DNA from: an uncultured Planctomycetales bacterium
GTDB lineage: Bacteria > Planctomycetota > SBBH01
Assembly (NCBI GenBank): GCA_964455625.1
Contig: CAYVXZ010000005.1
Coordinates: 9,632 to 73,631 of the forward strand
Direction: 5' to 3'
DNA: 64,000 nt
Shown here one piece after another: positions 25,853 through 62,662 of this stretch. Numbering within the stretch: position 1 is the first letter of the stretch; each line of letters starts with the position of its first letter. Made by a program: the position numbers and the translations under genes. The notes under the pieces are model-generated. The model was not told the origin of the DNA, searched no databases, and worked only from the letters and a program-made list of their open reading frames with translations.

Positions 25853-26121
25853 CCGATTCCCCGCGTACTTTCCCGCGTCTCGGCCTCGCCGCCACCGCTG
25901 CGGCCGGGATCGCCCTCTGCCTCCATGTCGGGGTCGGTTGGCTGGACGCCGGGCGCCCGCAACTCCGGCCGACCGGGCATCTGTCACTGGTTGCCGCCGC
26001 CGCCTGGATCTCCGCGACGGTGCCCGCCCTCCTCTTCGCGCTCCTCGAACGGAGGAACCGGGCCTGGTCCCTCGGTGTGCTGGGGGTCTGCCTGGCCGGT
26101 CACCTTCTCATTCTTCGTTGA
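25849..26121 (+). CDS. small hypothetical membrane protein
   Basis: 90 aa with two or three hydrophobic segments; start overlaps the GrpB stop (ATGA coupling). Confidence 0.35.
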   Translation: MTDSPRTFPRLGLAATAAAGIALCLHVGVGWLDAGRPQLRPTGHLSLVAAAAWISATVPALLFALLERRNRAWSLGVLGVCLAGHLLILR

Positions 26122-26140
26122 CGCTCCAACCGCCAGGTTT

Positions 26141-26665
26141 TCATGGCGGCTCCTTGAAGCCGATTCGTCTCGTTGCGACGGCCGGCGGCTCCATCAACTG
26201 CCGGATCGCTCCCAAAATCGCCTGGATCGCGCCGTCGTGGATCGACACCTTGCGCTCGAGTTCATCGAGCTTCCGGGCCAGCTCCTTGTGGACGGCCAGC
26301 GCCTCCCTCAAACGGATAAAGGCACGCACGATGAGAACGCTCGTCCGGACCGCCACGGAACTGTTGAGGACGCTCGCCAGCATCAGCGCCCCATGCTCGG
26401 TGAAGGCGCGGGGACGGCTGGGCGAGAATTTCAACCCCATGAGGTGGTCGCAATTTGCGACCACCTCGTCTTTCTCCGTCTGCGTCAGCTTGAACATGAA
26501 GTCCGGCGGGAAGCGGTCGAGATTCCGTTTCACCTGCTCATTCAAACGCTTCGTCGAAACGCCATACAGCCTGGCCAGATCGGCATCCAGCATCACGCGG
26601 TGCCCTCGGACAACGAAGATCCGCCGCTCGATCCGGTTCAATGCCCCCATCAGAGCAGGATACAC
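26141..26665 (-). CDS. ORF6N-domain protein (KilA-N/antirepressor-like, mobile-element associated)
   Basis: IFVVRGHRVMLDADLARLYGVSTKRLNEQVKRNLDRFPPDFMFKLT matches the ORF6N domain. Confidence 0.7.
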   Translation of the reverse strand: MYPALMGALNRIERRIFVVRGHRVMLDADLARLYGVSTKRLNEQVKRNLDRFPPDFMFKLTQTEKDEVVANCDHLMGLKFSPSRPRAFTEHGALMLASVLNSSVAVRTSVLIVRAFIRLREALAVHKELARKLDELERKVSIHDGAIQAILGAIRQLMEPPAVATRRIGFKEPP

Positions 26666-26685
26666 CCGCCGAGGAATAATGCAAA

Positions 26686-27264
26686 CTATTGTTTGCCATC
26701 AAGCGGCCGGGAGCGGGTCGCCGGGGAGACGGCGGCTATCGGGCGCCTTTTCCCCCCAGGCCCCCGCCGCCAACGGCCAAAACAGCCTGTCCGGGTTTCG
26801 TCCGTTTCGCCTCTCATGCCGGCGGCGCCGACGCACTGCCTTGCGCCCCTGTCGGCGGTTCGCCTGTCAGACATTCGCTTAGGGTGGGTTAATCGATTCC
26901 GTATTTTCAGGCTTGTCTGAAGGCTTTTCCATTCAGGCCCCGAAACATTGAGTTTCCAGCGGAGATTGAAGGCCTTGCTTACCAATGAAAAGGAGAATCG
27001 GACATTACTTAAAAAGCGGATTTTGGCTGGCCGATCAATTACCTCTCCTTTGTCATTGAGTTCCCAATCTAATTCATTGGCAAAGGAGACTTCCTCTTGG
27101 GAGAGCCTGTTTCTGCCATGAGATTCAATCGCGAACTGTTTCAAGCCAAAGACAACAGCTTCCATTAGCGAAAAAACACTCCTTGTTACCATTCGTCGTT
27201 TCGATTGAGAGATTCGATTTGGATTGAAAGAAGCGTCTGGGAAAAGGCACTCGTTTATGTCCAT
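26686..27264 (-). CDS. hypothetical protein in low-GC segment (possible degraded/fused gene; weak HEPN-like Rx4H motif)
   Basis: The N-terminal ~125 aa are encoded in a roughly 40% GC segment and end at ...LKIRNRLTHPKRM. The remaining C-terminal ~65 aa read through high-GC DNA with Arg/Gly-rich composition, which looks like read-through after a junction. Confidence 0.3.
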   Translation of the reverse strand: MDINECLFPDASFNPNRISQSKRRMVTRSVFSLMEAVVFGLKQFAIESHGRNRLSQEEVSFANELDWELNDKGEVIDRPAKIRFLSNVRFSFSLVSKAFNLRWKLNVSGPEWKSLQTSLKIRNRLTHPKRMSDRRTADRGARQCVGAAGMRGETDETRTGCFGRWRRGPGGKRRPIAAVSPATRSRPLDGKQ

Positions 27265-28091
27265 TGATAGTTCATGGTGGACATCCGCATTTCGAACGAC
27301 GATTTAAAAGAAATCCTCCGTTCTTACTTATGGTTTTATCGGCAGTACGTTTTACTTCTTCAATCCATAGTAGGCACGACTCACCGAAAACTTTTAAAAG
27401 CTCATCCAAAATCAAAATTTAGACTAGCTCTCCCCTCTAGAACGGAAATCCAAAATCTTTCAAAAATCCCGATTGAATCATTCTCGTGCTTCTTTCCGCC
27501 TCAACGTCACTCAAAAAGCTTAAGCTCCTGAATAGCATCCAAACTATTGAAACCAATTAGTTGTGGCGGGGGCCGATCGACAAAGCTGGCCGAAGGCCAG
27601 CGATTCCACCAGGGTGGGTGGGCCCGACCCCCTATTACTCACCAGGACCTGATCTGAACGGGGCCGCCGATGGGGGCCACAAGTGGGCGGGGTGAGAGGG
27701 GCCCCTCCGGCCGGCCGAGGCGCGGCTGGCCGTTTTTGGCGGCAGGGGGCCGGTAGAGAAAAGCCGGCCCGATAGGGCCGGCACTCCCTACGGGGGTGGG
27801 TGGGGAAATAGGTCTTATTTTTTTAGGTGGAGCGGGACGCTCGCGCTCCCGGCGGCCCGCGGCGGGAACCTGGACGCGGGGCTGAACCGGCAAGGCGAGG
27901 CGCGGTCTGGCGTGAACGGGGAAGACTGCCGCTGGCTTCGCCTCGCCGCCGCCGGTTCGCAGTGAGGCGGGGGTTGGCCAGTCTCCTCCCCGCCGAACGT
28001 CCCGCGAACAGGTGAACCGCCGGTAGGGCCGCAGGCGGACTGAAAATGTGTTTTTGTTCGGGGCCAATTATGCGGAGCGCACGCGTCAGCG

Positions 28092-28385: not shown

Positions 28386-31130
28386 TTACAGCTGGTAAGC
28401 GGCGGGATCTGGCTTAAAGGGTCTTGCCAGCCACAGCGGGCGGCGGAGGTTGCCGGGGTGGACGGGCCGGGCCATCTTCATCCAACGCTGGTAGACGGCG
28501 AAGGACTTGTTGGTGTCCACGAAGACGTCGCCGTACTGGTCGGCGGGGCCCGGGAGGGTGACGGTCACCTTCTGGTGCCAGCAGTGCTGGCCGCTCAAGG
28601 GATCGGGCTGGACGGGAAAGATCAGATTCTGGTGGACGCCGGACTCGCTCCACCAGATCCGCTCGGAGTCGGGGTCGTCGCTCTTGAACGGCTTGACCCC
28701 CTCGAGCTTCCTCATCTTCCACTGTCCCGGCGCGACCTGGTCGAAGTTGACGACGGCGGTGGACCACCTCTCCCCCGCATGCCCGGGCAGGCGCCAGCGG
28801 CCCAGGTGATGCGAGCAGGCGACGATACCGGGGCGGATCGACTCGGTGACCCACGCCTTGTCGATGAAGAAGCCGATCTCGGTGGCGATCTTGAGGAGCT
28901 GGCCCGTCTCGACGCCGACGCGCTTCGCGTCCTCGGGGTGGATCCAGAGGGGGTTGGCGTGACTGATCTCGTTCAGCCACTTCGAGTTGCCGGAGCGCGT
29001 GTGGATCAGCGTCGGGAGCCGGAAGGTCGGGAGAAGCACCATCTCTCCCTTTTGGACGTCGATGTTCGACCAGTGGACCTGGCTCCGGATGTAGTTCGGG
29101 AGCATCTGGTCCTCCCACCCCCACTCCTTGAGGGTGGGCGAGTAGAACTCGAGTTTTTTCGACGGGGTCGGAAAGCCGGTGCGGGTCTTCCCCTCCACCT
29201 CGACGCCGGGGACGCCCGGTTTCACGGGGGTCTCGTGCGGACGATAGACATTTTCCTCCACCAGAAATGAGCCGTACTTCCGCATGTAGGCGAGCGGCGT
29301 CAGCCCTTCCTTCCTTGCGGCCTCCGGCAGGCCGGGGACGGAGTTCTCGAAGATCCACCGGTACTGTTCCTCGATCCGCATCTTCTGGCCCGGCTTGTAC
29401 GGCGACTCGAAGTACTTCCGGATCCCCAGGGTGCCGTCCGGGTCGATTCGCCAGGAGAGCTCGATCCAGAATTCGTCTTCTTCCCACACCTGCCCGATCC
29501 CGGCGGCCTCGTGCGCCTGCCAGGTGAGGTCGAACACCTTCCCCTGCTTTTCGAGGGCGACGCGCTGGACGGGCTGACGGAACCCGATCCAGCGGGCGGC
29601 GTGCGTCTCCTGGCTCATGAGGTCGTGCCGCTCGGAGCCCAGGCCCATCGGGAGGACGTAGTCGGCGAACTGCGCCGTCTCGCTCCAGACCGGCGTGAGG
29701 CAGGCGTGGCACTCGATCCCGGATTCGTCGGTGAGCATCTCGATCCAGCTGGCGCCGTCGGGGTTCGTCCAGACGGGGTTGTAGACGCGCGTGAAATACA
29801 TCGAGAGTTTTCCGCGTTTTTCCTTCAGGAAGTGCGGGAGCAAAAAGCTCATCTCGAAGAAGGCCAGGGGGAACTCCCGCGGCATCAGGAGCTCGCTCCA
29901 GACCTTCGGGGCCGGGGGCATGCTGTGCGGCATCGGGATCGACTTGTTGGTGTAGCTCGGGGCGGTGCCCCCCGGCGTGCTGACCGCCCCCATCAGGACC
30001 ACGATCAGCTCGAGAGCCCGCGCCACCTGCCAGCCGCCCAGATTCCCCGCGGCGGCGTTCCGCCAGATGTGGGTGGCGAGGGCCGAGCCGGCGCGGCCGA
30101 TCTCGTGCGCCACCTCGATGATCGTCGCGGCGGGGACGCGGGTTTCCTTCTCGGCGAATTCGGGGGTGTATTCGGCGTAGATCTCTTTCAGGGCCGCTTC
30201 GAACGCCTCGAACGTCTGCGGGCCGTTCGGCCGCTCGGCCTTCAGGTACTCGGGCCAGTTGACCCAGTTCTTCACGAACTCGCGGTTGTAGAGCCCTTCG
30301 CGCACCAGGATGTTCGCGATGGCGAGAAGCAGGGCCGCCTCGCTCCCCGGCCAGGTGGAGAGCCAGTAGTCGGCCATCGAGGCGGTGTTCGAGAGGCGCG
30401 TGTCGATGACGCAGAGCTTCGCCCCCTTCTCCTTCCCCTCCATGATCCGCTGGGCGTGGGGGTTGAAGTAGTGACCGGTCTCCAGGTGCGACGAGAGCAG
30501 GAGCATGAAACGCGCGTTCGCGTGGTCCGGCGACGGCCGGTCGTACCCGTGCCAGAAGGCGTACCCGGCGCGCGCCGAAGAGGAACAGACGTTCGTGTGG
30601 CTGTTGTGCCCGTCGATCCCCCAGGCGTGCAGGACCCTCTGCAGGTAGACGAGCTCCATCCCGGGGCGCCCCAGGTGGTACATGACCTCTTCGGGCTTCT
30701 TCGCGACGAGCGACTTCCGGATCCGTCCGGCGATGTCGTCCAGGACCGCGTCCCAGGTGACACGCTCCCATTTTCCGCTCCCGCGCGGGCCGACCCGCTT
30801 CAGGGGGTACGGGATCCGCTCCGGGTCCTGGATCTGGTTCAGCGTGGCGGGCCCCTTGGCGCAGGTGCGGCCGCGGCTCCCGGGGTGCGTCGGGTTCCCC
30901 TCGAACTTCTGGACCTGCAGGGTCTTTTTATCGACGTAAGAAAGGAGCCCGCAGGCGGACTCGCAGTTGAAGCAAATCGTCGGGATCAGCCAGTAGTTCC
31001 GCTCGACCTTCTTCGGCCAGGACTTGCCGTCGAGCTCCGTCCAGTCGTCCCACCGCGACGCGGGCGGAAACGACGCCAGCCCCCCGGGCGGGAGGTCGAG
31101 ATCCTTGGCGGCGGGGTTCAGGGGCTCCAT
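28386..31130 (-). CDS. molybdopterin (Mo-bisPGD) oxidoreductase catalytic subunit, Psr/Phs/Ttr-like; no recognisable Tat signal
   Basis: 914 aa; N-terminal CFNCESACGLL...GRTCAKGPA (CxxCxxxC...C-KG FeS/Mo-bisPGD motif); typical MopB size. Its start ATG abuts the stop of the upstream FeS-NrfD gene. Confidence 0.75.
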   Translation of the reverse strand: MEPLNPAAKDLDLPPGGLASFPPASRWDDWTELDGKSWPKKVERNYWLIPTICFNCESACGLLSYVDKKTLQVQKFEGNPTHPGSRGRTCAKGPATLNQIQDPERIPYPLKRVGPRGSGKWERVTWDAVLDDIAGRIRKSLVAKKPEEVMYHLGRPGMELVYLQRVLHAWGIDGHNSHTNVCSSSARAGYAFWHGYDRPSPDHANARFMLLLSSHLETGHYFNPHAQRIMEGKEKGAKLCVIDTRLSNTASMADYWLSTWPGSEAALLLAIANILVREGLYNREFVKNWVNWPEYLKAERPNGPQTFEAFEAALKEIYAEYTPEFAEKETRVPAATIIEVAHEIGRAGSALATHIWRNAAAGNLGGWQVARALELIVVLMGAVSTPGGTAPSYTNKSIPMPHSMPPAPKVWSELLMPREFPLAFFEMSFLLPHFLKEKRGKLSMYFTRVYNPVWTNPDGASWIEMLTDESGIECHACLTPVWSETAQFADYVLPMGLGSERHDLMSQETHAARWIGFRQPVQRVALEKQGKVFDLTWQAHEAAGIGQVWEEDEFWIELSWRIDPDGTLGIRKYFESPYKPGQKMRIEEQYRWIFENSVPGLPEAARKEGLTPLAYMRKYGSFLVEENVYRPHETPVKPGVPGVEVEGKTRTGFPTPSKKLEFYSPTLKEWGWEDQMLPNYIRSQVHWSNIDVQKGEMVLLPTFRLPTLIHTRSGNSKWLNEISHANPLWIHPEDAKRVGVETGQLLKIATEIGFFIDKAWVTESIRPGIVACSHHLGRWRLPGHAGERWSTAVVNFDQVAPGQWKMRKLEGVKPFKSDDPDSERIWWSESGVHQNLIFPVQPDPLSGQHCWHQKVTVTLPGPADQYGDVFVDTNKSFAVYQRWMKMARPVHPGNLRRPLWLARPFKPDPAAYQL

Positions 31131-32738
31131 CTAGCTAAGCGGGACCGATTGCCCCGCGCGGACCCACGCCTCTTCATAGAGATAAAGGCCGACGAGCGCC
31201 GAGACCGCCGCCGCCGCCGCGCCGAACGCCCCTCCCACCAGCGACAGGAGGACGAGGGGAACCGTGACCCCGAGGCCGACCCCTCCCCCCCAGAAGAGCC
31301 CCGAGAGGTGTCCGCTCCGCAGGGTCTCCGCCGCGCGCGCGGCATCCTGGCTCGGGTGCCTTCCCAGGACCTCGACCGCGAGGATCCCCCCCTGGACGAC
31401 GAGCGACCCCGAGAGAAGGAGCGAGAAGTAGCGGAGCGCCTCCGGCGAGAACCCGGAGGCGCACATGACCAGGAGGAGCGCGGCGCTGCCGGCAAGGACG
31501 GCCGACGCCAGCAGCTGCCAGAAGAGAAGCGGGCTCTGCCAGAAGTCGCGCCCCTCCGCCTGGCCGAACAGGAAGGCGCTGTAGACCGCCGCCGCGACCG
31601 AGAAGACGACCGCCGGCCAGGCAAGAAGGGCGAACCACTCGGGACGACCCAGAAAAGCGGCGGCGAGCCAGGCGGTCGCCACCCCCCCGAACCCCATCAG
31701 GATCCAGGCCCCCCAGACAAGCCACGAGCGCCAGTTCGGCTTCAGGAGGATGTAATGGAAACGGTCGGGGCGCTTGAGATCCGCGACGAGGAGAATCGTC
31801 GTCAGGGCCAGAAAGACGAGGGCCAGAAGCGGCGCCTGGATCCCGAGGAGCCGCCCAGGCTCCCAGCCGAAGGCGGCGACGCACGCCGCGGCGATTCCCA
31901 TCACCCCCGCCGCGACCGACTTGGTCCAGAGGTAGGCGGAGACCTTCCATCCCCAGGGGTTCTCCAGGTGCGGGACGTCGTAGACGGTCCGCGCCATCGT
32001 CTGGAGGTCGCGGGCGAGGTTCTCGTCCGGCGCGGCCGGTTTCGGGAAGACCGACATCCCGGTCTCGGCAAAGAGGTACGAATCCCCCCGCTCCAGCGCC
32101 TGCGGGGTGAGCGACGCCTGATCCGCACCGGTGTAAAAGACCTTGGGGCGGGTCCCCTGCTCGGGCTTACGGACCTGGGTCTGCTCGGTCCCGACGCGTC
32201 TGGCGATGTTGCTGGCCGGGTTATCCAGGTCCCCCGCCACGATCGCCTGCTCCGGGCAGACGACGACGCAGGCGGGCTCCAGCCCCACCTCCACGCGGTG
32301 CGCGCAGTAGTTGCACTTGGCGGCGGTCTGCGTGTTCGGATCGATGTAGAGGGCGTCGTACGGGCAGGCCTGCATGCACGACTTGCACCCGATGCACCGC
32401 TCCGGGTCGAAGTCCACGATCCCGTCCTTCCGGCGGAAGAGCGACGTCGTCGGGCAGATCGTCGTGCAGGGGGAATCGTCGCAGTGGTTGCACCGGAGGA
32501 CCGAGAAATACCGGCGGGTGTCGGGAAACACCCCCTTCTCGATGTACTTGACCCAGGTGCGGAACGCCCCCAGGGGGACGCCGTTCTCTTCCTTGCAGGC
32601 GACCGTGCAGGCGTGGCATCCGATGCACTTCGTGTGGTCGATCAGGAAGCCGTAGCGCACCGGCGGAAGGATAGCGGCGCGGAAGGGCCCTCCGAAGGAA
32701 AAAGCGGGGGCCCCCGCTTCCGGAGGCCCCCGCCGCAT
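31131..32738 (-). CDS. fused 4Fe-4S ferredoxin (NrfC/PsrB-like) + NrfD/PsrC-like integral membrane subunit
   Basis: N-terminal half has four Cys clusters (CIGCHACTVAC, CNHCDDSPCTTICP, CIGCKSCMQACP, CNYCAHRVEVGLEPACVVVCP). The C-terminal half has about 8 TM helices, NrfD-like. Confidence 0.75.
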   Translation of the reverse strand: MRRGPPEAGAPAFSFGGPFRAAILPPVRYGFLIDHTKCIGCHACTVACKEENGVPLGAFRTWVKYIEKGVFPDTRRYFSVLRCNHCDDSPCTTICPTTSLFRRKDGIVDFDPERCIGCKSCMQACPYDALYIDPNTQTAAKCNYCAHRVEVGLEPACVVVCPEQAIVAGDLDNPASNIARRVGTEQTQVRKPEQGTRPKVFYTGADQASLTPQALERGDSYLFAETGMSVFPKPAAPDENLARDLQTMARTVYDVPHLENPWGWKVSAYLWTKSVAAGVMGIAAACVAAFGWEPGRLLGIQAPLLALVFLALTTILLVADLKRPDRFHYILLKPNWRSWLVWGAWILMGFGGVATAWLAAAFLGRPEWFALLAWPAVVFSVAAAVYSAFLFGQAEGRDFWQSPLLFWQLLASAVLAGSAALLLVMCASGFSPEALRYFSLLLSGSLVVQGGILAVEVLGRHPSQDAARAAETLRSGHLSGLFWGGGVGLGVTVPLVLLSLVGGAFGAAAAAVSALVGLYLYEEAWVRAGQSVPLS

Positions 32739-32747
32739 GCGCCCGCC

Positions 32748-33365
32748 CTACTTGTTCTTCCGGTGCTTGATCTTCTCGCGCGCCTTCTCGCCGGCGCGGT
32801 CGTCCTTGTGCTCCTTGTGGAACTTCCTCTCGCGGTCGAGCTGCTCCTTCCCCTCGCGGCGCGTCAGGGAGCCGTCGCCGTCGGTGTCGGCCCGGTCGAA
32901 CCGCTTCCCCCCGAAAAGCCGCTCCTCGAGCGGCGTCGCCTCCGCCTTCGCCTCGGTGCGTGTCAGGCCTCCGTTCCCGTCGGCGTCCGCCCGGTCGAAC
33001 CGCTCCTCGCGGTAGCCGTCCTCGTCGGTGTACCCCTTCTTCCAGCGCTCCACCCCCTCGCGGCGGGCGTCGCCGGCCCGATGCCGGTGCTTCCGGCACA
33101 TCTCGTGGAAGCGGTGCCGCTTGATGCGACCGTTCTCGTCGGAAAACCGCTTCCACCAGGCGCGATCCGCCTCGGAGCCATCCGTCAGGCCCGCGGCGGC
33201 CGCCTCGTCAAAGGTGAGCTCTCCGTCGCGGTCGGCGTCCGTCTGGACGAACGTCTCCTCGTCCCTTGCTTCGAGCGATTCCACCTCCTCGGAACGCACC
33301 ACACTGCCGGCCAGAAAAGCCCCCGCTGCCAGCATCCATCTCCCCATCTTCCATCCGTTGCTCAT
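32748..33365 (-). CDS. secreted EF-hand calcium-binding protein, paralog A
   Basis: Start ATG at 33365 (MSNGWKMGRWMLAAGAFLAGSVV signal peptide; AAAGGA RBS). Three canonical EF loops: DADRDGELTFDE, DADGNGGLTRTE, DTDGDGSLTRRE. The track start at 33434 is a TTG lying inside the promoter. Confidence 0.8.
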   Translation of the reverse strand: MSNGWKMGRWMLAAGAFLAGSVVRSEEVESLEARDEETFVQTDADRDGELTFDEAAAAGLTDGSEADRAWWKRFSDENGRIKRHRFHEMCRKHRHRAGDARREGVERWKKGYTDEDGYREERFDRADADGNGGLTRTEAKAEATPLEERLFGGKRFDRADTDGDGSLTRREGKEQLDRERKFHKEHKDDRAGEKAREKIKHRKNK

Positions 33366-33418
33366 GACCCGTCCTTTCTGGCATGTATGCCCTTGTTTCC
33401 CCACGACGGGAATATCAA

Positions 33419-33434
33419 GCATATTCCGTGCCAA
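33419..33434 (-). promoter_or_regulatory. sigma-54 (-24/-12) promoter upstream of EF-hand gene A
   Basis: Minus strand reads TTGGCACGGAATATGC, i.e. TGGCACG-N4-ATGC against consensus TGGCACG-N4-TTGCW; about 54 nt upstream of the start codon. Confidence 0.6.
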
Positions 33435-33651
33435 TGGTCATGCCGGGTCAGAAAGCCAGGGGCGATCCGGAGAGCGCTCTGAAATCCGACAGGTGCCGGG
33501 AATACCCGCACCAAAGAGGGTAGAGGGTGTCGAGACCGCGCCGGGGACGTCAGCCAGCGGGAGTGTTCCCACGGAGGCCCAGGTCGAAGCACGAAAGATG
33601 AAGCAGCGTGGAGCAGAATCCCCTCCTCAAATTCACCATTCTCCGATTGTT

Positions 33652-34386: not shown

Positions 34387-34461
34387 ATCCCTGTTTCACG
34401 CAAACGCGGTTCCCGCCGGCACTGGCCCGGACCACAGGGAAGCCTGAAAGGAATTTCGATA

Positions 34462-36774
34462 ATGAATTATTTATGTATTATTATTGATTCATTCATTAGA
34501 ATCCCGGCCAGAGTGCCCCGCCATCCGGCCGTCACGACGTTCCTGACATCGGAATCGGATCTCCTCACCATTCTGGAGGGGAGCCCGGAACCGCTCGACC
34601 CGGTTCTGCAAGCGACGCTCGCCATCCGCCGGGCGCTCGCCGGGCTTGTCCCCGCCGAGCGGGCGAACGCGTTGGCCGCCGGGCTGGCCGAGCCGGACCA
34701 GGATCCGGAGTTGCGCCTCATCCTGCTCGCCACTTGGGCAACCCTCTCCGGCACCCGCGAGCGTCACGATGAGATGCGAGCCATCCTGCGACAGGCCCAG
34801 GGGCTCGTCGGCCGGGAAACGCCTCCCGAGCTGCGCGTCATGGTCATGCTCTGCGAGGGGTACTATCTTTCCCTGCGCGGAGACCGGCGGCGGCGCGAAA
34901 CGCTCCTCAAGCAGGCGCTGGGAACCCTGACCCGGGCCTCTCCGTGGTATCCGCGCGTCGCCTGGGAATGGGCGGTGGTCTTGGCCCAGCAAGGACGCGC
35001 GAACGAGGCGGAACCCGAGATACGGTTTCTTGATGCCAAGGAAAGCGAGTCCTTCCCGCAGGGGCGACTCGCCCTCGTGAGGTTGTTCGACGCGGTCGAG
35101 TCCGGGCGATGGCGCCAGGCCCGGGTGATGATCGAGCGAATCGACCGCGACCGCCGCACCCTCCGCCCCTGGCAGGCGCTCCTGCGGATCGCCGAACAGT
35201 ACCGGGCGCTGGCGGGCCTGGCGGATCCGAGAGGAGGCGCCCCTACCGAACCGTTCGCGCGCGAGGAGGAGGATCTTCTGCTCGTGACGCGCCATCTCCT
35301 TGCCGGACGGGCGCAGCTCGCCTTGCGCGCGGCCCTGGAGCGCCATGCGCGCTTTCCGCTCCGGTCGATGGAGGCCGGCTTCACCGGCTGGGACATGATC
35401 CGGGCGGAGCTCGCCTGCGGAAACGGGGAATCGGCCCGCCGGCTGGTTGCCGCGCGCCGAAAGCGCGGAAGCCCCCACTGGCTGGACGGGTTCTTCCTGG
35501 CCCGCGCCGAGCGCCTGGCGGGAAAGTCACGGGGGGTGGCCCGGTTGCGCGAAGCCCGCCGGGAGGCCGCCCGCCTCGGCGCCGACGGACGGTTCGAACT
35601 CGAGCTTCGACTCGCCACCGAGATCCCCCCCGGAGATCCGTTCCTTGCTGGCGTGCACCTTCAGGAAAGGAGCGTTCGTCCTGTCGGGACATCCGCTGTC
35701 GATGTCTGCGACTCCGTCATGGATCCGTTGGTCGGGACCGATCCGGAAATCGTTCGCGTCCGGGAGGTGGTCCGCCGGCTCGCTCCGCTGAAGGTGACAG
35801 TCCTGGTGACCGGCGAAACCGGAACCGGAAAGGAGCTTGTCGCGCGCGCCCTGCACGAGGCGGGGCCACGGCGGGCAAGACCTTTTGTCGCTGTCAACTG
35901 CGGTGCGATCGCGGAGGCGCTCCTCGAGTCTGAGCTTTTCGGCCACGAGAGAGGGGCGTTCACGGGAGCCGAACGGGCTCATCGAGGACTTTTCACCGCG
36001 GCGACCGGCGGGACCCTGTTCCTGGACGAAATCGGCGAGGTCTCCCCGCGCCTGCAGGCCGCGCTCCTGCGGGTCCTCGAGAATGGCGAGGTGCGTCCCG
36101 TCGGGTCGGCCGGCGCAGAGCGGATCGACTGCCGCGTCGTCGCGGCGACGAATGCCGACCTCGACCGGCTCGTCGACAGGGGCCTCTTCCGGAAGGACCT
36201 CCTCTATCGTCTGCGGCGTCTGGAGATCGCGCTCCCTCCGTTGCGGGACCGCCCGGCGGACATCCTGCCGCTGGCGCTTCACTTCCTGAACCAGGACCGC
36301 CCCACCGGACGGACCGCGACGATGACGCCGGATCTCGCCGATTGCCTGCGCGCCCATCTCTGGCCGGGAAATGTCCGGGAGCTCAAGAACCGGATCGAGC
36401 GGATGCTGCTCCTGGCCGGCGAGAAGGCGGTCTATACCCGCGAGGACTTCGACCTCGCGCCGCTCTCGCCGCGGGAGCCTGCGCCGGCCGCCAGTGCCGG
36501 CACGCCCGCGGACCCGCGCGACCCGTTGCAGGTTTTCACCGAGGGGCGGTCGACCCTGCGGCGCCGGGAACGACTGAAGGCTCTCTTCCATGAGCACCGG
36601 ATGCTCACCCGGGCAGAGGCGGTCCGCATCCTGGACGTGGCCCCCGGGACCGTCACAACGGACCTCAAGGCGCTGGCCGCGGAAGGGGTGATCGAGAAGG
36701 TGATGCCCCGCCGCGCGCCGCGGACCCATTTTTTCCGGCTTCGCACAAGGCCGTCCGACAGGATTATGAAATGA
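34462..36774 (+). CDS. sigma-54-dependent transcriptional activator (enhancer-binding protein) with ~430-aa non-canonical helical N-terminal domain
   Basis: [57 protein letters not shown]...[25 protein letters not shown]...[27 protein letters not shown] (AAA+ sigma-54 interaction domain with GAFTGA) plus a C-terminal HTH. The first 15 codons are very AT-rich, so the true start may be the downstream GTG near 34509. Confidence 0.85.
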
Positions 36775-36889
36775 ATCAAGAATGAACCGTTTTCAGGAAT
36801 AACGGAAACCGGTCGCACGCGACCTGCTCTAACCCCTTCCAGGTCAATCCCCAAAAACATCCGCCGCGCGCACCCCGATTGCATGCAGA

Positions 36890-39800
36890 ATGGCCATGCC
36901 CGCACATACGCTTCCCCGGACCGGTGGCATCGCCCTCATTCTGACCGCCGGCATCATGACCCTGCTCGGCCTCATGGCGGCCCTTTTCACGGGAGGCCTC
37001 CGGCTGACCTCCGAGACAGGCCACCGCCGGACGGATCAAACCCGCTCCGGGCTTGTGAGCGAAAGCGGCCTGTCGTACGCCCGATCGCGTCTCCTCGCCC
37101 GGACTGCCCCAGCGCCCGGCGCGCTTTGTCGCGGAGATGACTGGACGGCGCGTGGCGACGAGATTCCTTCCCTGTCGCCCGGACAGCTCTCGAATCCCTC
37201 CTATGCACGCGGGGAGCCGTGGCCGGATGACGGAGACGGCATCCACAGACCAGGCGAGGAGCGATCAGGCCCTGGCTGGATCGACCTAGATCGGGACGGC
37301 CGCCTCTCCGCCTGGAGCGGCCGCCTCCGGCTGGAAGCCACCCCGTTCGGCGCCCGCTTCGCCCTCCGGATCCGTTCGGACGCAGGGCTCGTTCCGGTCA
37401 ACGCGGGCGAGCTGGGAAATCCCGACGCCGATCACGACTGCGACGGGATCCCGAACCGGCTCGATCCGGAATACCATGCCTGGCTTGCGGTCAATCCGGC
37501 TCCATGGGCCGATCCGGGCGCCGGTATGAACGTTTCCCTCGTGAACCTTCTCGACAGCCTCGGCGCCCTCCTGGACATCTCGGACGCCGCGCCAGAGCCG
37601 TATACACCGGCCCTCGGAAACCGGCCTCCCACGCCGCGCCACGGCGAGATCCTCCTTTCTCGCCTTGGCCGCCGGATCGTCGCGGCGCGCCCACGCGGCG
37701 GCTACACATCGGTGGAGGAACTTCTCCCCGTCCTCGGAGCGGAAGACTACGCCAAGTCCGCCCCTTTCCTGACGGTCGCGGGAGACCGAGCTCCCCGCAA
37801 TGCCGATGTCGTCGCAGGCCACGCCGATACGGTCACCCGGGCAATGCTGGTCCGCGCCGATCAGCCGCTCATCGACCTGAACAGCGCGCCCGAGACAGTG
37901 ATCCATGCAGCCCTCCGGATCGCTGCCGCCGGGGGCCTCTATCACAACGATCCGTCCCATTACAACTGGGCAGAGGATGCCGAGTTCCAGGCGATCGTCA
38001 CCGAATCTTCCTACGTGCGGATCCTGGAAGGCGAGGCAGCCGGAATCGCCGCACTCATCGGGCAGGAGCGCCGCACCGCCCCGATCCGGAGCTGGAAGCG
38101 CCTGCTGGAGATGCTTGCGGCCTTCTCCGACGTCGCCGACGACCCCTTCACGGCCGTCGACGACCGGACCGGCCAGGCGCGAGAAACGCGCCAGCGCCTG
38201 ATCGAAGATCTCGTTCTCGCCTCTTTCAGCGCGGAAATGTTCGTCCCCGACCCGTTCTCGCGGAGCCGGGATACGCTTGAGGTCGAACGCGAAGGGATCC
38301 CGACGGGCGAGGATCTTTTGCGCGCGCGCCAAGTGCCGTCGGCGGCGCTCCTGGCGCAACAGACCGCCCCCTACAACGTCTCGGGACTGATCCCGCCGCC
38401 GGGTACCGCCGCGCAGCTCCACATGCCGGTGAACTATTTCGAACCGCCGCCGCCGGAGCCGGGCCGTCCGACGCCGGCCCACCTGAAGACCCGGCCGAAC
38501 GCCATTTTCGGCCTGGCGGGCGGGCCATGCCGGTACGACATCGAGTCGGAAGGACGTTCCGGGCCGGATCACCGGCAGACCCGGCGTTCGGCGCGGGCTT
38601 CCTGCGGCCTGCCGCTTGCGGCCTGGCGGGCGACCGGGCAGGAGGATTTCGAGATGCAGCGTCCAGCTCCGGGCTCCCCGCGCTTTTTCGAGAGGGGAGA
38701 CCTCCTCTGCGAAGGCTCCATCCCCCCCGTCAGAAACGGTATCCAAAGCCATCCCCGCTTCCCGATTTCCAGCTACACGCCCGAAGCGCTCCTGGCCGAT
38801 TTTCCGGACATGACCGACGATCAGCAGGAAAGGCTCCACGAAGCGCATGCCTGCCCCGTCCTGTGGGGAGACCTGCGGTTCGCGGCCCGTCAAGCGCCGG
38901 TCTCCGAGCTCCTCGAAACGACCCCTCCGTGCGTCTTCGCCCTGCCGTTCAACGAGGATTCCGTCCCGGGTCCCGACAATCTTTACTCACCCGACGACTG
39001 GAAGGACAACTTCGGGGATCCGACCCGCCGCCCGGAGGGGTCCCCCATGGTGCGATGTTACAGCGGCGAAGGCCGCGGGATGGCGATCGGCGGATGGGCC
39101 CGCTTCGGGCCGTGCGGCCTGCGCCTCTTCCCCCTGGCAATGGTGGGCGAAGAAACGGGCGAACCGGAGGACGGCGATTTCTTGTCGTTCCGGTGGGACG
39201 ACGGCTCGGCCCCCTGTCCGCTGACGCGCGGTGACTACCACGACTCGGACGGGTCGACAAACGTCGTCTCGGGGGGCGGGGAGATCCGGAACGCCACGAT
39301 CACATTCTCCTTTCCGGCGCGGGGCGGCGAGACGCCGGTCGCCCAGTACGGGGATACCGAGTTTACCGTCCAGTTCGAATCGCAGCCGGTTGGCGGCGCG
39401 AGCGGCGCTGGCGTCGACGGGGATGAAGGCGGCAAAGGGGGAATGGGCGGGGGAGGAAGCGGAGGCGAGGAAGAGGAAGAAGAGGAGGAAGAGATCGACC
39501 AGGAGGATATCTATTTTTCCTACCTGAAGATCCGCGTCCTGCCGGGGGACATCCTCATGCTCTCGATGCAGGACGGGAGCTCGGCCCCGGCCATGCCGCC
39601 TCCCGTGCCGTTCGCGTCGGGCCGGCGGTGGCGCCACGCGGCGGTAACGATCGACGGCGGGACGGACCCCGACGACGGCATCGCCCATGCGAGCGCCTGG
39701 ATCGACGGCGTCCTCGCGACGACCGCTCCCTTCACGCTGGATACCGGTCGCTTCCCCGCCGACAAGAAGCCGACGAGCGGCGCCCTGCGCCTCAAGATCG

Positions 39801-40267
39801 TCCAGGGTCCCCTCGACGACCTGAAGTTCTTCAACGCCACGATGAGCGCGCAGCAGATCCAGGACGAGGCGACGCGGGCGTTCCTGCGCCACGAGACGTC
39901 CGGGTCGTACCTCTCGGGCCTTCTGACCTTCGACCAAGGCCGCTTTCCCGGAGGCGCGGCGCTCACGGGCGCTTCCTGGAGCGCCTTCGCACCGGCCGCC
40001 TGCCGGGGCCCGACTGCCCCCATGACATTTACCGTGTACGCTTACGGAAATGATCCGACCGCCCCTCCCCTCGGCGAGGCGAACTTCGACTGGGACGGAA
40101 GCCCGGAGGCGCTCCAGCAAGCGGACTTCCGCCTCCCTCCCTGCCGGCATTTCCGGTGGCAGGTCGTCATGCGGTCAGCAAGCCCCGCCGACACGCCGAT
40201 CCTGGAGGAGTTCCGCGTCCACTACGCGCGGCCGGGAGCGTCCTGGACGACCTATGCCGCGGACTGA
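36890..40267 (+). CDS. giant (1125 aa) pseudopilin-like protein, paralog 2
   Basis: MAMPAHTLPRTGGIALILTAGIMTLLGLMAALF (prepilin/PilX_N-like); NPSYARGEPW, DLDRDGRLSAWSGRLR, PVNAGELGNPDADHDCDG, RPRGGYTSVEELL, IDLNSAPETVIHAAL (HhH/SAM-like as in GspK/ComEA); acidic Gly/Glu low-complexity linker; C-terminal WRHAAVTIDGG...AWIDGVL is LamG-like. Confidence 0.65.
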   Translation: MAMPAHTLPRTGGIALILTAGIMTLLGLMAALFTGGLRLTSETGHRRTDQTRSGLVSESGLSYARSRLLARTAPAPGALCRGDDWTARGDEIPSLSPGQLSNPSYARGEPWPDDGDGIHRPGEERSGPGWIDLDRDGRLSAWSGRLRLEATPFGARFALRIRSDAGLVPVNAGELGNPDADHDCDGIPNRLDPEYHAWLAVNPAPWADPGAGMNVSLVNLLDSLGALLDISDAAPEPYTPALGNRPPTPRHGEILLSRLGRRIVAARPRGGYTSVEELLPVLGAEDYAKSAPFLTVAGDRAPRNADVVAGHADTVTRAMLVRADQPLIDLNSAPETVIHAALRIAAAGGLYHNDPSHYNWAEDAEFQAIVTESSYVRILEGEAAGIAALIGQERRTAPIRSWKRLLEMLAAFSDVADDPFTAVDDRTGQARETRQRLIEDLVLASFSAEMFVPDPFSRSRDTLEVEREGIPTGEDLLRARQVPSAALLAQQTAPYNVSGLIPPPGTAAQLHMPVNYFEPPPPEPGRPTPAHLKTRPNAIFGLAGGPCRYDIESEGRSGPDHRQTRRSARASCGLPLAAWRATGQEDFEMQRPAPGSPRFFERGDLLCEGSIPPVRNGIQSHPRFPISSYTPEALLADFPDMTDDQQERLHEAHACPVLWGDLRFAARQAPVSELLETTPPCVFALPFNEDSVPGPDNLYSPDDWKDNFGDPTRRPEGSPMVRCYSGEGRGMAIGGWARFGPCGLRLFPLAMVGEETGEPEDGDFLSFRWDDGSAPCPLTRGDYHDSDGSTNVVSGGGEIRNATITFSFPARGGETPVAQYGDTEFTVQFESQPVGGASGAGVDGDEGGKGGMGGGGSGGEEEEEEEEEIDQEDIYFSYLKIRVLPGDILMLSMQDGSSAPAMPPPVPFASGRRWRHAAVTIDGGTDPDDGIAHASAWIDGVLATTAPFTLDTGRFPADKKPTSGALRLKIVQGPLDDLKFFNATMSAQQIQDEATRAFLRHETSGSYLSGLLTFDQGRFPGGAALTGASWSAFAPAACRGPTAPMTFTVYAYGNDPTAPPLGEANFDWDGSPEALQQADFRLPPCRHFRWQVVMRSASPADTPILEEFRVHYARPGASWTTYAAD

Positions 40268-43200
40268 CCGCGCCCGGACCGGCGTCGTCCTCGCACTGAC
40301 GAGCGGCCTGCTTACGGCTTTGGCGTTCGCTGTCCTCATTTTCACGCAGATCGTGCGGATCTCCGCTACTGTCCTGTCGGCCGCCTCCGGACGCGCGGAC
40401 GGGGAGCTGGCAGCCGAAAGCGGAATGCATTGGGCGGCGGGGCATCTCGCCGAAAAACCCGCCCGTTTCGACATCCCGCGAACAGCGGTCGCCCGTCCCG
40501 ACGACTGGCAGTACCGGGACGGCGCCGAGTATCGCTGGACTCCAGATGGACCTGATCCCCTCCCGGAGGACCTGCAGGAAAGCTTCAACCCCTCCTTCGC
40601 CCGCGGCGAGCCCTGGCATGACGCGGACGGAGACGGGCGTTACTCCGCGGACGAAATCTGGACGGACCTCGACGGCAATGGACGCTACACCGCCTGGAGC
40701 GGCCGCCTGCGGGGTCCGAGACCCCCCTTGGGGCATTCCTTCTCGATCCGGATCGACCCGGGCCCCTCTTCGCGCGTCAATGTCAACGGAGGGGATGTCG
40801 GGAAGCCATGGTCCGCGACCGCTCCGTGGAGGTTCAAAGGACTCCCCGCTGACTCCGGAAACGATCAGCTGGCATGCCACCTGAACCTGTTGGGAGCCTC
40901 TCTCGGGATCAGGGACTACACGATCGCGAACGTGGACAATGCTGCGATCAAGCCGGTGCTCGTCTCGGACCTGGGTGCGGAAATCCTGTCACGCCGACCG
41001 GTCGGCGGGTTCCGGTCACGGAACGACCTGGCGCGCGCCCTGATCGACGGCGGGGCGCTGACGCGCGACCAGTGGAGTCGCCTGTCGCCTCATCTGGCCC
41101 TGCACGAGACCCGGAACACCGCCGGACGGACCTGGCTCGACCTGAACGGCGCCCCGCGCGCCGTCCTGGCCTCGTTCTGGATGCACCGGAGAGGTGGGGC
41201 GACCTCCCCCTGCCTTTCCTATTCGGGTGCGGATCTCCTGATCGGCGGGACGCCGGTCTTGGACCCCTGGACACAGACCAACTGGGGTGCATCGGCCTTC
41301 GTCTTTCCGGAGGAGGCCACGACCATGGCAGACGAGATACACCTCGCCAAGCGTATGTTCGGGATGCTGGAAAGCTATCTCGAGGTCTTCCGGACGCTGT
41401 GGGAATCCCTCCAGGGTCCCGACGGGCATCTTTGTCCGGATGACCCCACGACATCAATCCCGGAGCCGGCGCTCTACGCCACCGAAAAGGCGCGGATCCT
41501 CATGGCCGCCTCCTTCCCGGACGCCGTGACGCAGAACGGATCGAGCGGCGGATCGCAGATCGGTCGCTTGATGGGGGTCCTGTCCTCGGTGGGAAGCTGG
41601 GAGTGGGACCCGGACGACATCCAGGGAAACGATGTCCTGGCCGTCAACCTCAAGACAATCCCTGAAGGAACCCGCATCATCCCTCTGGACGGCGACGGCT
41701 ACCACGAAGCCAGCCCCTATTCCGGCCTGACGGGATTCGCCGCCGTCTGGCCCGACCGGGCGCTCTGGCTGGGGCCGATCCGGGATTTCGAGGTCTCCTG
41801 CCTCGCGCACTCGATTGGCGGGACCCTGGCCGTTCGTTCGGCCGACGTCCGGATCCTCACAGGGATACATCTGAACAGCCAGGAAGATTTCGAGAACCTC
41901 GGCACGATCCGGACCGGGAGCGACCCGAATGCAGGCATCCGCCGCTTCCTGACGGATGGCGTCGAGACGGCGGGGCTTTCCCGCTACGACAGGGTCCAGT
42001 CGCTCCCCGACTTCTCGAAACGCTCGCATTGGCGGGCTGGCATGACGGGGTTCGACATGAAAGTGGGAGCCCTTACGCTTGCCGAGGCGGTACCCGATTT
42101 CCCCGCTTCCCCCGCCCCGACCGCCCAGGCGGTGATGGCCCCCCACGCGGACGGGAACGAGACCCTGGCGGGCAACTGGCTCGACACGACCTACATGGGA
42201 GGACAGGACCATGTCCGTCTCAAGGGGACCTACCCGTTCGCCGACGACGGTCCGGACGCCCTCTTCGCGCACGGGGATCCGTTCGAGATCCAGCCTTCCC
42301 AGATGGCGACCGGCACCAAACCGCTCGACAAATGCGACCCCTGCTGGACCGGCAACATACGGACCTACTTCCTCTCCCTGGACGCCTCGGACGGCATCCC
42401 GGCGCCGCTGCGAAGCGGCCCTCCTCCCTGTCCGGCCTCCAGTCCCCACTCCGACCTCGCCCGGATGTGGCAGTCGGGCGGAATCGAGGCATGGGTGGAT
42501 TTCACCGGCGGGACCGTCTGGGAAGCGAGCGCCGACTTCGACTTCGGGCCCGGCCTTCTCCTTCCGCAGTCGCTGACGCTCTCCCGCGGAGAGACCCAGT
42601 ACTTTCTCGAATGGCGGTACGAGATCCCCGTTGTCTGGGAGGACCTGAACGGATCCCGGGTGGTCGATCCGGGCGACACCTACTGGATCGCTTCCAGCAA
42701 CACCGGCGACAACCGCATCGCCTGGGATATCCCGACCCGCGGCGTCCCGTGGGTCCGTCCGCTTCCGGACCACCTGGTCGTCGAATGGCAGACGCTCCGC
42801 TACGTCCCGAACCGGGGGAACCTGGATGCGCTGGAGATCCGGACGCGTCTCCGGATCGTCCTGAACGGCTCCGTTGTCCACGACGCGGTGCACACGTTCA
42901 ACCAGGACTTGCAGGGAACAGCCCCCTTCGTGCCTATCCTGTCGAGGCGGATCGCGGCCGACGGCCGCTTTGACTCCCAGCTCGCGATCAAGTGCTACGC
43001 CGATCAAGTAGCACTCTATAACGGCTTCGGCGCCGGGGACTTCCGGACAGCAAATCCACGTCCCTGCCGGGACCGATTCGAGCGGCAAGGATGGTACGAA
43101 TCGCCGCTCCACGTCCTTCCGCAAACGATGCGCCCGCTCTGGGCTGCCTGGACCGGCGTTGCCTCCGAGCAGATGCGCGTGTCGGCCCCGCAAGCGATGC

Positions 43201-43460: not shown

Positions 43461-43476
43461 ATCCGGCTCAACAAAA

Positions 43477-43513
43477 GCCGGCGGGGACGCCGCTGAACGG
43501 AGCCCCCGCCGGC
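43477..43513 (-). terminator. GC-rich hairpin between convergent genes; intrinsic terminator for the EF-hand B transcript
   Basis: Perfect 10-bp inverted repeat GCCGGCGGGG...CCCCGCCGGC with a 17-nt loop. On the minus strand it is followed by CUUUUGUUG. No U-tract on the plus strand. Confidence 0.5.
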
Positions 43514-43527
43514 CGTCGCTTCGGGTC

Positions 43528-44112
43528 CTACTTGTTCTTCCGGTGCTTGATCTTCTCGCGCGCCTTCTCGCCGGCGCGGTCGTCCTTGTGCTCCTTGTGG
43601 AACTTCCTCTCGCGGTCGAGCTGCTCCTTCCCCTCGCGGCGCGTCAGGGAGCCGTCGCCGTCGGTGTCGGCCCGGTCGAACCGCTTCCCCCCGAAAAGCC
43701 GCTCCTCGAGCGGCGTCGCCTCCGCCTTCGCCTCGGCGCGGGTCAGGCCGCCGCTCCCGTCGGCGTCGGCCCGCTCGAACCGCTCGCTGTTGCGCTCCGG
43801 GTCCCCGTACGCCTTCTTCCAGCGATCGGTCCCCTGGCGGTGCCTGCGGCACATCTCGTGGAAGAGATGGCGCTTCAGGCGCCCGTTCCCGTCGGAGACC
43901 CGCTTCCACCAGGCCCGGTCGGCCTCGCAGCCGTCGGTGAGGCCGGCCGCGGCCGCCTCCTCGAACGTGATCTCCCCGTCCTTGTCGGCATCGGTCCGGG
44001 CGAACGTCTCCTCGTCCCCGGCGTCGATCGACTCCACCTCTTCGGCCCGGACGCCCCCTCCGGCGAGGCATCCCGCGACCAGGATCCATCCCATCATCTT
44101 CCCGCTTTCCAT
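43528..44112 (-). CDS. EF-hand calcium-binding lipoprotein, paralog B
   Basis: Start ATG at 44112 (MESGKMMGWILVAGC, lipobox-like; AAAGGAAA RBS). Three EF loops: DADKDGEITFEE, DADGSGGLTRAE, DTDGDGSLTRRE. The 3' 213 nt are identical to paralog A. Confidence 0.8.
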   Translation of the reverse strand: MESGKMMGWILVAGCLAGGGVRAEEVESIDAGDEETFARTDADKDGEITFEEAAAAGLTDGCEADRAWWKRVSDGNGRLKRHLFHEMCRRHRQGTDRWKKAYGDPERNSERFERADADGSGGLTRAEAKAEATPLEERLFGGKRFDRADTDGDGSLTRREGKEQLDRERKFHKEHKDDRAGEKAREKIKHRKNK

Positions 44113-44166
44113 GCACGTTTCCTTTCTGGCACGCATGCCGTTATCCCTCACCGGATGAATAGTCAG

Positions 44167-44183
44167 GCATTTCCCGTGCCAAC
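44167..44183 (-). promoter_or_regulatory. sigma-54 (-24/-12) promoter upstream of EF-hand gene B
   Basis: Minus strand reads TTGGCACGGGAAATGC (TGGCACG-N4-ATGC), the same architecture as the promoter of paralog A. Confidence 0.6.
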
Positions 44184-44273
44184 GATCATGCCTGGCAGGG
44201 AAACACGAAACGGTCCTGATACTGTCCTGGAATCCTACGATTGCCGGAAAATACCCCGGCTGGCCGGGGGGCG

Positions 44274-47538: not shown

Positions 47539-48141
47539 TCAAAAAAGGGTCGAGATCGCCCCGGTTCCGCGCAGCAGCTCGACGAGCTCCCACAGGAAGA
47601 AGGCCCAGACGAACCACATGGCGTCCAGGATCGCCTTGCGGATCTTGTCGGGGGGGATCGAAAGCGACTCCGGCTCGTGGTACAGGCGGAAGTCGGGAAA
47701 CCAGCGCGGCGTGCGGGCGCGGTAGGCCGCGTAGGCGTCGCCGAACGCCGCCGCAAGCACCCGCTCCTCCCGCCTCACCGCGAACGGGTAGTAGGCCGCG
47801 AAGGCACCCCCCATCACGAGCGCCAGGCAGGGGTTCTCCACGGCCAGGCCGAAGCCGACGGCGCCGATGAAGCTGAACACGTACAGCGGATTGCGCGTGA
47901 CCGAGTAGGGCCCTTCCATGACAAGGACGTTGTTCTTCTTCCCCCCCACGAACGCCAGGCACCAGACGCGTCCGAATGCCGCGACGACCAGCATGGCGAA
48001 CCCCGCCAGTTCCGAGGCGCCGGCCATCCAGGGGGAAAGCGGGACGGGCGGCGCGGCGAGGAGCACGTAGGCCAGGAGGAGGAGGCCGAGCAAGCGGCTC
48101 AAGGAAACCCGCCGGCTGGTCGAGAAGGACGTGTCGCTCAT
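47539..48141 (-). CDS. isoprenylcysteine carboxyl methyltransferase (ICMT/PEMT)-family membrane methyltransferase
   Basis: VLVMEGPYSVTRNPLYVFSFIGAVGFGL...AFGDAYAAYRARTPRW. Confidence 0.7.
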   Translation of the reverse strand: MSDTSFSTSRRVSLSRLLGLLLLAYVLLAAPPVPLSPWMAGASELAGFAMLVVAAFGRVWCLAFVGGKKNNVLVMEGPYSVTRNPLYVFSFIGAVGFGLAVENPCLALVMGGAFAAYYPFAVRREERVLAAAFGDAYAAYRARTPRWFPDFRLYHEPESLSIPPDKIRKAILDAMWFVWAFFLWELVELLRGTGAISTLF

Positions 48142-62300: not shown

Positions 62301-62306
62301 CGCTTT

Positions 62307-62660: not shown

Positions 62661-62662
62661 GG

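Follow-up and report, generated by a model that had tools for sequence, protein, structure and literature searches.

Two paralogous EF-hand genes in the DNA of an uncultured planctomycete are each preceded by a sequence that resembles a promoter for sigma-54 (RpoN), and a gene for a sigma-54 enhancer-binding protein (EBP) lies between them. This arrangement raises the question of whether the two elements are genuine sigma-54 promoters and whether the EBP encoded between the genes is the activator that serves them. The first-pass annotation had described sigma-54 control of such a cargo as unusual. This description stands insofar as we found no report in the literature of sigma-54 control of EF-hand proteins, but it is tempered by the fact that a predicted secreted envelope protein fits the control of the bacterial exterior that has been proposed as the role of sigma-54 (PMC3162934).

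The stretch of DNA analysed, referred to here as the window, measures 64 kb in its entirety. Its IMPDH is 63-67% identical to Planctomycetota proteins, with closer matches being metagenomic only, and the host appears to be a member of a poorly sampled planctomycete lineage. To our knowledge, almost no promoters have been mapped experimentally in Planctomycetota, and the unit described here, if correct, would be among the few well-supported sigma-54 regulatory units in that group. Elsewhere in the window, a gene for SelA (selenocysteine synthase, E=4.7e-136; 47976-49649, plus strand) lies a few kb from the ABC/EF-hand locus. Two stretches of lower GC content (26001-28000 and 62001-64000; 0.58 vs about 0.69) gave no tRNA or Rfam match and contain ORFs without a Pfam family; a foreign origin or a lack of coding function is possible for both. 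In what follows, we argue that the EF-hand promoters and an associated activator site very probably form a real and ordinary sigma-54 regulatory unit with an unusual cargo. Beyond the first-pass annotation, we describe a conserved dyad upstream of the promoters, terminators behind both genes, a Mo-enzyme operon downstream at locus 1 and the direct-repeat placement of the two copies around the EBP-giant module. The features concerned are collected in Table 1.

Table 1. Positions of the predicted regulatory elements and genes, numbered from the first letter of the window.
Feature	Position	Strand	Description
Predicted sigma-54 promoter, EF-hand gene 1	33419..33434	-	-24 TTGGCAC / -12 ATGC; exact TGGCAC-N5-ATGC
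Predicted sigma-54 promoter, EF-hand gene 2	44167..44182	-	-24 TTGGCAC / -12 ATGC
Candidate UAS, promoter 1	33481..33510	-	TGCGGG-TATTC-CCGGCA-CC-TGTCGG-ATTTC, three half-sites
Candidate UAS, promoter 2	44229..44259	-	1 mismatch to 19-nt pattern; partly overlaps terminator of upstream ABC-ATPase gene
Predicted 5' leader, EF-hand gene 1	33366..33407	-	conserved GGCAnnnnTGCC-AGAAAGGA; Shine-Dalgarno 33372-33379
Predicted 5' leader, EF-hand gene 2	44113..44155	-	Shine-Dalgarno 44120-44127
EF-hand gene 1 (205 aa)	32748..33365	-	signal-peptide-like N-terminus, three canonical EF-hand loops, basic C-terminal tail
EF-hand gene 2 (194 aa), paralog of gene 1	43528..44112	-	last ~215 nt 100% identical to gene 1
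Intrinsic terminator after EF-hand gene 1	32695..32734	-	14-bp GC-rich stem (32734..32703) + TTTTT; before FeS/NrfD gene
Intrinsic terminator after EF-hand gene 2	43472..43510	-	GGCGGGG...CCCCGCC, then GGCTTTTG
Fused 4Fe-4S / NrfD membrane subunit gene	31131..32660	-	start GTG 32660; possible read-through target of promoter 1
Molybdopterin oxidoreductase catalytic subunit (914 aa)	28386..31130	-	Psr/Phs/Ttr-like, no twin-arginine motif
Sigma-54 EBP (753 aa from GTG 34513)	34513..36774	+	helical-repeat N-domain, AAA+ module with GAFTGA, predicted C-terminal winged helix

The EF-hand Paralogs

The EF-hand identity that had been assigned to both paralogs is upheld by four Pfam models above gathering cut-off (EF-hand_1/5/6/7 at 31-42 bits, with cut-offs of 25-30). 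Near the N-terminus of the protein, residues ~8-22 are hydrophobic and precede VR(S/A)-EE, which suggests a Sec signal and leads us to predict export. The two loci align over about 1 kb, and identity is unevenly distributed along this alignment. The last ~215 nt of the genes (32748-32965 and 43528-43745, both on the minus strand) are 100% identical whereas the 5' halves are about 80% identical, a disparity that points to recent gene conversion between the 3' ends. Identity in the upstream DNA is about 65% overall and is concentrated in islands at the -24/-12 block, at the ribosome-binding site (RBS) block and at a block ~60 nt further upstream. Because both promoter sites lie in this paralogous DNA, they are best counted as one evolutionary event and not as independent evidence. 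The two copies are direct repeats around a ~10-kb module that contains a HEAT-repeat gene, the EBP gene and two giant genes. In the relative locus L004, the flanking genes (PEMT, HlyD, MacB, ABC, EF-hand and FeS) form a continuous series in which a PALP-domain gene separates ABC from EF-hand and such a module is lacking.

Predicted Sigma-54 Promoters of Both Genes

Read on the minus strand, the first site (33434..33419) is TTGGCACGGAATATGC, or TTGGCACG-GAAT-ATGC, and the second (44182..44167) is TTGGCACGGGAAATGC, or TTGGCACG-GGAA-ATGC, with a core identical to that of L004. The coordinates and motif letters given previously are correct when read on this strand, save that the end of the second site at 44183 adds one G, and the GG and GC dinucleotides reported at -24/-12 spacing are present in both sites as canonical TGGCAC-N5-xTGC. 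Indeed, TGGCACGGAATATGC and TGGCACGGGAAATGC both have GG at -24 and GC at -12 in the geometry of TGGCAC-N5-TTGC. The sigma-54 consensus of Barrios et al. (1999) reportedly reads YTGGCACGrNNNTTGCW; against this extended form, the first site has one mismatch and the second has two. The consensus of Barrios et al. is also the one employed in PMC3162934.

Within the 64 kb, TGGCAC-N5-WTGC matches twice, at the EF-hand promoters only, where shuffles lead to an expectation of 0.09, and none of 100 shuffled sequences contained two matches. The T of TGGCA lies 68 nt (gene 1) and 69 nt (gene 2) from the ATG on the strand of the gene, so that both elements fall, correctly oriented, in the 0-200 nt before the start codon. 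Matches to the sigma-54 motif that are well placed in this manner have been considered highly likely to be genuine (PMC3162934). A relaxed scan of the window (GG and GC fixed, at most 2 mismatches) is uninformative because it yielded 7 matches vs ~14 expected, and the exact matches alone stand out. Two further candidates were set aside: a sigma-54-like match at 21159-21174 (minus strand), which falls within coding sequence of the other strand and is attributed to chance, and TGGTCCGGGTTTTGCT at 16533-16548 (minus strand), an intergenic match with 2 mismatches before a TPR-repeat gene, which is probably also due to chance as the ATG that follows at 13 nt is not in the frame of that gene. Transcription from a sigma-54 promoter is expected to begin ~12 nt downstream of the GC, and the start site of EF-hand gene 1 is predicted to lie near 33408 and that of gene 2 near 44156.

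The matched leaders described in the first-pass annotation are likewise present, with AGAAAGGA at 33379..33372 followed 6 nt on by ATG 33365, and at 44127..44120 followed 7 nt on by ATG 44112.

Conservation of the Promoter Block in Relatives

Among 5.8 billion proteins, the EF-hand family includes, besides the pair in the window, four relatives that are 63-77% identical and a few more distant ones (32-34%). The family is therefore tiny, and the relatives that it does include stand in three kinds of gene neighbourhood. In L001 and L004 the order is ABC transporter, EF-hand and FeS/NrfD; in L002/L003 it is ABC, EF-hand, convergent giant genes and EBP ortholog, as in the second locus of the window; and in L005/L006 it is UDG, EF-hand and a convergent peptidase M42, with neighbours unrelated to those in the window. 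All six close homologs have an invariant TGGCA[CT]-N5-[AC]TGC in their upstream DNA, at a distance of 65-100 nt from the ATG; in each relative locus of 5-10 kb the motif has no other match, and it sits on the strand of the gene. When the sequences are anchored on TGGCA without gaps and conservation is taken as the fraction with the commonest base per column, the core reaches 0.91 vs 0.53-0.62 for the flanks; in the pairwise comparison of window gene 1 with L005 the corresponding values are 0.88 and 0.20. Within the block, GG and GC are fixed and the 5-nt spacer is variable. Moreover, promoter and dyad (see below) are both kept in L005/L006 despite completely different neighbouring genes. The claim that both paralogs have sigma-54 promoters is thus supported at the level of sequence, with the core kept in 4 further independent loci and the flanks randomised, and the four metagenomic relatives provide the independent support that the window pair does not.

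The footprint is confined to the clade with at least 63% identity because more distant homologs (32-35% identity; P0007 and P0009 among them) are without the sigma-54 motif. A metagenome scan for EF-hand homologs recovered two distant ones only, L010 and L011 (29-35% identity), also without the motif, and a genome collection searched with the EF-hand alignment yielded no relatives. The footprint accordingly rests on few lineages, with about five genomes possessing the family, in one lineage.

Other readings of the block must be weighed against this pattern. It could be a sigma-70-type promoter with TTGGCA as the -35 and TATTC(A/C/T) as the -10 element, its likeness to sigma-54 being coincidental, a reading that we consider very unlikely. 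TTGGCA does match TTGACA at 5/6 positions, and GACTATTC is kept 15 nt downstream of TTGGCA in the second window copy, L004 and L005. However, the sigma-70 spacing would then be 14-15 nt, no locus has a conserved -35/-10 pair (16-18 nt spacing, at least 8/12 matches), and the invariant TGC would sit in the sigma-70 spacer, where sequence is normally not conserved. L001 and L002 have, furthermore, lost the TATTC box while keeping TGGCA-N6-TGC. We rejected the sigma-70 reading on its wrong spacing and the lack of a conserved -35/-10 pair. It is most improbable, too, that the block is a repressor or activator operator or a structured RNA leader, with transcription arriving from further upstream, as by read-through from the HEAT-repeat or ABC genes. 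Such a reading could draw on the leader GTGCCA, which is the reverse complement of the TGGCAC box, and on the interval between the HEAT-repeat gene (stop 33652) and promoter 1, where no terminator was recognised. It is countered at promoter 2 by the strong terminator (44269..44254, then TATTTT) that separates it from the ABC gene, and the combination of fixed GG/GC with a variable 5-nt spacer is the pattern of sigma-54 and not that of a palindromic operator. The RNA version was rejected, as an Rfam search of the promoter/leader block gave no match and the only leader structure is an invariant 4-bp hairpin without covariation. The sigma-54 reading of the block is consequently the one that we carry forward, and it is from the features above that we infer sigma-54 dependence.

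Unit Boundaries and the Possible Reach of Promoter 1

The RBS block of the EF-hand leaders is invariant across loci, and a GC-rich hairpin is found 3' of every EF-hand homolog, with stem sequences that differ between loci yet pair; a T-tract follows the hairpin in all loci except L005. Because an intrinsic terminator follows every EF-hand gene, the unit appears to be mainly monocistronic. The order EF-hand to FeS/NrfD is nonetheless common to locus 1 of the window, L001 and L004. Conservation places the probable start of FeS/NrfD at GTG 32660 (MRYGFLIDH), and since this gene has no recognised promoter of its own in the 87-nt gap that precedes it, read-through from the sigma-54 promoter of locus 1 into the Mo-enzyme operon is possible.

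The molybdoenzyme genes (28386-32660, minus strand) have FeS and NrfD fused in one 509-aa protein, the B/C fusion coming first and then A; neither FeS/NrfD nor the molybdopterin oxidoreductase reached an NCBIfam equivalog cut-off. A 915-aa protein of L013 was compared with the Mo subunit and found to be unrelated. Between the terminator and the FeS/NrfD GTG lies CGCCGCTATCCTTCCGCCGGTGCG (32661-32700, minus strand), which is near-identical in the window, L001 and L004, non-coding and without a Shine-Dalgarno sequence; it could serve the Mo-enzyme genes as a promoter or as a signal for translation.

A Candidate Upstream Activator Sequence

All six upstream regions share a common block, TGyCGG-N5-CCGrCA-N2-TGyCGG-ATTTC, in which the start of the right half-site lies 58, 58, 58, 57, 48 and 82 nt upstream of TGGCA. 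The distance between dyad and promoter is thus essentially equal at four loci and off by one helical turn at one. Expressed as a 19-nt pattern, the dyad is found in the window at both EF-hand promoters (0 and 1 mismatch), with a further match of 2 mismatches in a coding region that is at chance level, and once each in L002, L004 and L005 at the equivalent place. This measure of specificity is partly circular in that the pattern was derived from the same sequences, and the weight of the dyad evidence would seem to lie in its presence in L005, amid unrelated surrounding DNA. Judged by its conservation and placement, the dyad looks like an enhancer, and we regard it as a candidate upstream activator sequence (UAS). 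By eye, no match to the IHF consensus WATCAANNNNTTR was seen between dyad and promoter or in the AT-rich boxes described below.

The Enhancer-Binding Protein

The EBP matches Pfam Sigma54_activat at E=1.6e-64, and its motifs are intact (Walker A GETGTGKE, Walker B LFLDEIGE, GAFTGA). The first-pass annotation had located it correctly between the paralogs, but its start at ATG 34462 is probably 51 nt too early and GTG 34513 is the more likely start, because orthologs begin M-(A)-R-H-P-A, aligning to GTG 34513, and because a sigma-70-like TCGATA-17-TATTAT lies before it at 34456-34484. In an AlphaFold model of the protein (30 family members, mean pLDDT 86), residues 1-367 form an all-helical repeat (TPR-like) domain and residues 411-635 an AAA+ core with a Foldseek TM of ~0.9 to FlrC, FleQ, NtrC1 and PspF. 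Residues 681-743 are modelled as alpha-beta-alpha-alpha-beta-beta, and the C-terminus is predicted on this basis to be a winged helix, with which weak sequence matches to HTH_DeoR/HTH_20 and AdcR (MarR family) agree. The EBP has no match to the Fis-type helix-turn-helix HTH_8, a C-terminal domain that is typical of EBPs though not universal, and it did not reach any NCBIfam equivalog cut-off. Proteins of this architecture are common in MAGs of the PVC group (named Verrucomicrobiota, Lentisphaerae and Planctomycetes). A genome collection searched with the EBP returned generic Rhodoferax EBPs only and no extra loci, and a more distant relative, L016, has an unrelated gene context.

There is no rpoN among the genes of the 64-kb window. 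The gene is present in the planctomycete Rhodopirellula baltica (RB6491; PMC2754498), and the presence of EBPs and that of sigma-54 match almost perfectly across genomes (PMC3162934). Given this co-occurrence and an intact EBP, the host presumably possesses rpoN.

Which Activator Serves the Promoters

The proposed link between the EBP and this locus is borne out in part, as the two are adjacent in the window and in L002, where the EBP ortholog has the same arrangement as in the window, but no EBP was found in the available flanks of L001, L004 and L005. The 64 kb contain no canonical sigma-54 sites other than the EF-hand promoters, whose distances to the EBP gene are 1.1 kb and 7.4 kb. On balance, it is slightly more likely than not that the neighbouring EBP is the cognate activator of the EF-hand promoters.

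It is, however, quite possible that the sigma-54 promoters are genuine and are activated by an EBP encoded elsewhere, with the adjacent EBP controlling itself and the two giant genes by way of ATGRATCAA boxes. Giant genes are the constant neighbours of the EBP, their synteny being kept in the window, L002 and L012, whereas sample ERR15087790 has its EF-hand gene (L005) and its EBP (L012) on separate contigs, and in L001 and L004 no EBP lies within 3-6 kb of the EF-hand gene. Moreover, the window contains exactly two copies of ATGRATCAA, one at each end of the EBP gene, where 0.33 would be expected, and L012 has the motif at the corresponding two positions. A conserved rGCAy-N5-TTGC precedes the first giant gene, exactly 13 nt before its ATG, and the GC-rich dyad is absent from the EBP-giant region. 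Against an activator encoded elsewhere stand the proximity of the only canonical promoters to the EBP gene and the position of the EF-hand copies, which enclose the EBP module in the window, with one copy beside it in L002. In addition, the element before the giant gene is without the GG that defines the -24 box, and the AT-rich boxes could belong to a different regulator, one of them overlapping a sigma-70-like -10.

The elements and genes around the EBP have several further features. The AT-rich ATGRATCAA boxes (ATGAATCAA) form an inverted pair in the window (34484-34492, minus strand; 36771-36779, plus strand), one overlapping the sigma-70-like -10 before the EBP start and the other the EBP stop codon; in L012 they occupy 2384-2392 (minus strand) and 4697-4705 (plus strand), in the same orientations. 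In a genome of 68% GC they form AT-rich islands, and positions 34456-34500 look like a Fur box. The element before the first giant gene, rGCAy-N5-TTGC[AG], is found at 36870-36898 (plus strand) of the window, ~4790-4823 of L012 and ~7749-7780 (minus strand) of L002, with the same 13-nt distance to the ATG in all three genomes and 0.02 expected in the window. It is sigma-54-like, yet its -24 element has CG or AG in place of GG; should it act as a promoter, the giant-gene mRNA would be leaderless. The giant ORFs (~1,130 aa each; 36890-40267 and ~40050-43460, plus strand), which always lie downstream of the EBP in these three genomes, have no Pfam or NCBIfam family and a weak Laminin_G_3 match only, and the first begins with a hydrophobic helix loosely reminiscent of a pseudopilin at its N-terminus. 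A 756-aa protein of L012 was compared with the HEAT-repeat protein and found to be unrelated.

Proposed Mode of Regulation

Our preferred explanation, which we hold as a whole with considerable confidence, comprises insulated EF-hand units with sigma-54 promoters, a dyad-bound activator that is most likely the adjacent EBP, and possible read-through. In this scheme, sigma-54 (RpoN) holoenzyme would bind the -24/-12 element TTGGCACGG-N3-ATGC and wait in a closed complex, which a hexameric AAA+ activator would remodel using ATP. The activator would be expected to sit on the three-half-site dyad, whose right half-site starts ~58 nt upstream of TGGCA, and would most likely be the adjacent 753-aa EBP with its helical-repeat sensor, GAFTGA AAA+ core and C-terminal winged helix. 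With transcription beginning ~42 nt ahead of the ATG, the leader would be short and would contain a strong Shine-Dalgarno AGAAAGGA; the mRNA would encode the ~200-aa exported EF-hand protein and end at the GC-rich intrinsic terminator. At locus 1, some polymerases may continue into the FeS/NrfD and molybdopterin oxidoreductase genes.

A more elaborate scheme can be envisaged, though we think it rather unlikely, in which a dyad-binding, PVC-wide class of EBP is dedicated to this unit, a leaky terminator feeds the Mo-enzyme operon, and the EF-hand repeats mediate gain and loss of the module. If the dedicated EBP and the leaky terminator were true, one signal would induce a periplasmic Ca-binding protein together with an anaerobic respiratory enzyme, and the EF-hand direct repeats, with their 100% identical 3' ends, would allow the EBP-giant module to be gained or lost through homologous recombination.

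Should our preferred explanation be correct, a predicted exported EF-hand protein would join the list of sigma-54 cargo. The locus also points to an uncharacterised EBP architecture, with a helical-repeat sensor and a winged-helix DNA-binding domain, that is common in PVC-group bacteria, and a promoter and enhancer within ~110 bp would constitute a compact and tractable test system.

Comparison with Known Systems

The mechanism itself is standard for sigma-54, and the EF-hand cargo and the architecture of the EBP are the less familiar parts. Canonical sigma-54 promoters with an upstream activator sequence include glnAp2/NtrC, nifH/NifA and pspA/PspF. Like canonical sigma-54 promoters, those predicted here have the same GG/GC spacing, 1-2 mismatches to the extended consensus, the correct orientation and a position 65-100 nt before the start codon, together with a dyad-symmetric block ~60-110 nt upstream and the gene for a GAFTGA AAA+ activator nearby. 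They differ in a -12 element that is ATGC or CTGC and not TTGC and in the lack of an AT-rich IHF-like site between dyad and promoter. The EBP shares with NtrC, NifA and PspF the Sigma54_activat domain, Walker A, Walker B, GAFTGA and the AAA+ fold. In contrast to these activators, it is without a receiver, GAF, PAS or V4R sensor domain and has instead a ~370-aa helical N-domain with no sequence match to a solved structure, and a predicted C-terminal winged helix replaces the Fis-type HTH_8. The cargo, a predicted exported EF-hand protein, and the host, of a poorly sampled Planctomycetota lineage, likewise set this unit apart from canonical sigma-54 systems. Secreted EF-hand proteins are known in bacteria, examples being EfhP of Pseudomonas and XopAW of Xanthomonas, and the window proteins resemble them in their multiple DxDxDG loops, small size and N-terminal hydrophobic, signal-like segment. 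The match to the NCBIfam model of XopAW is weak, however (30.8 bits, with a cut-off of 120), and the window family is distinguished by its basic C-terminal tail and its association with a Psr-like Mo-enzyme operon.
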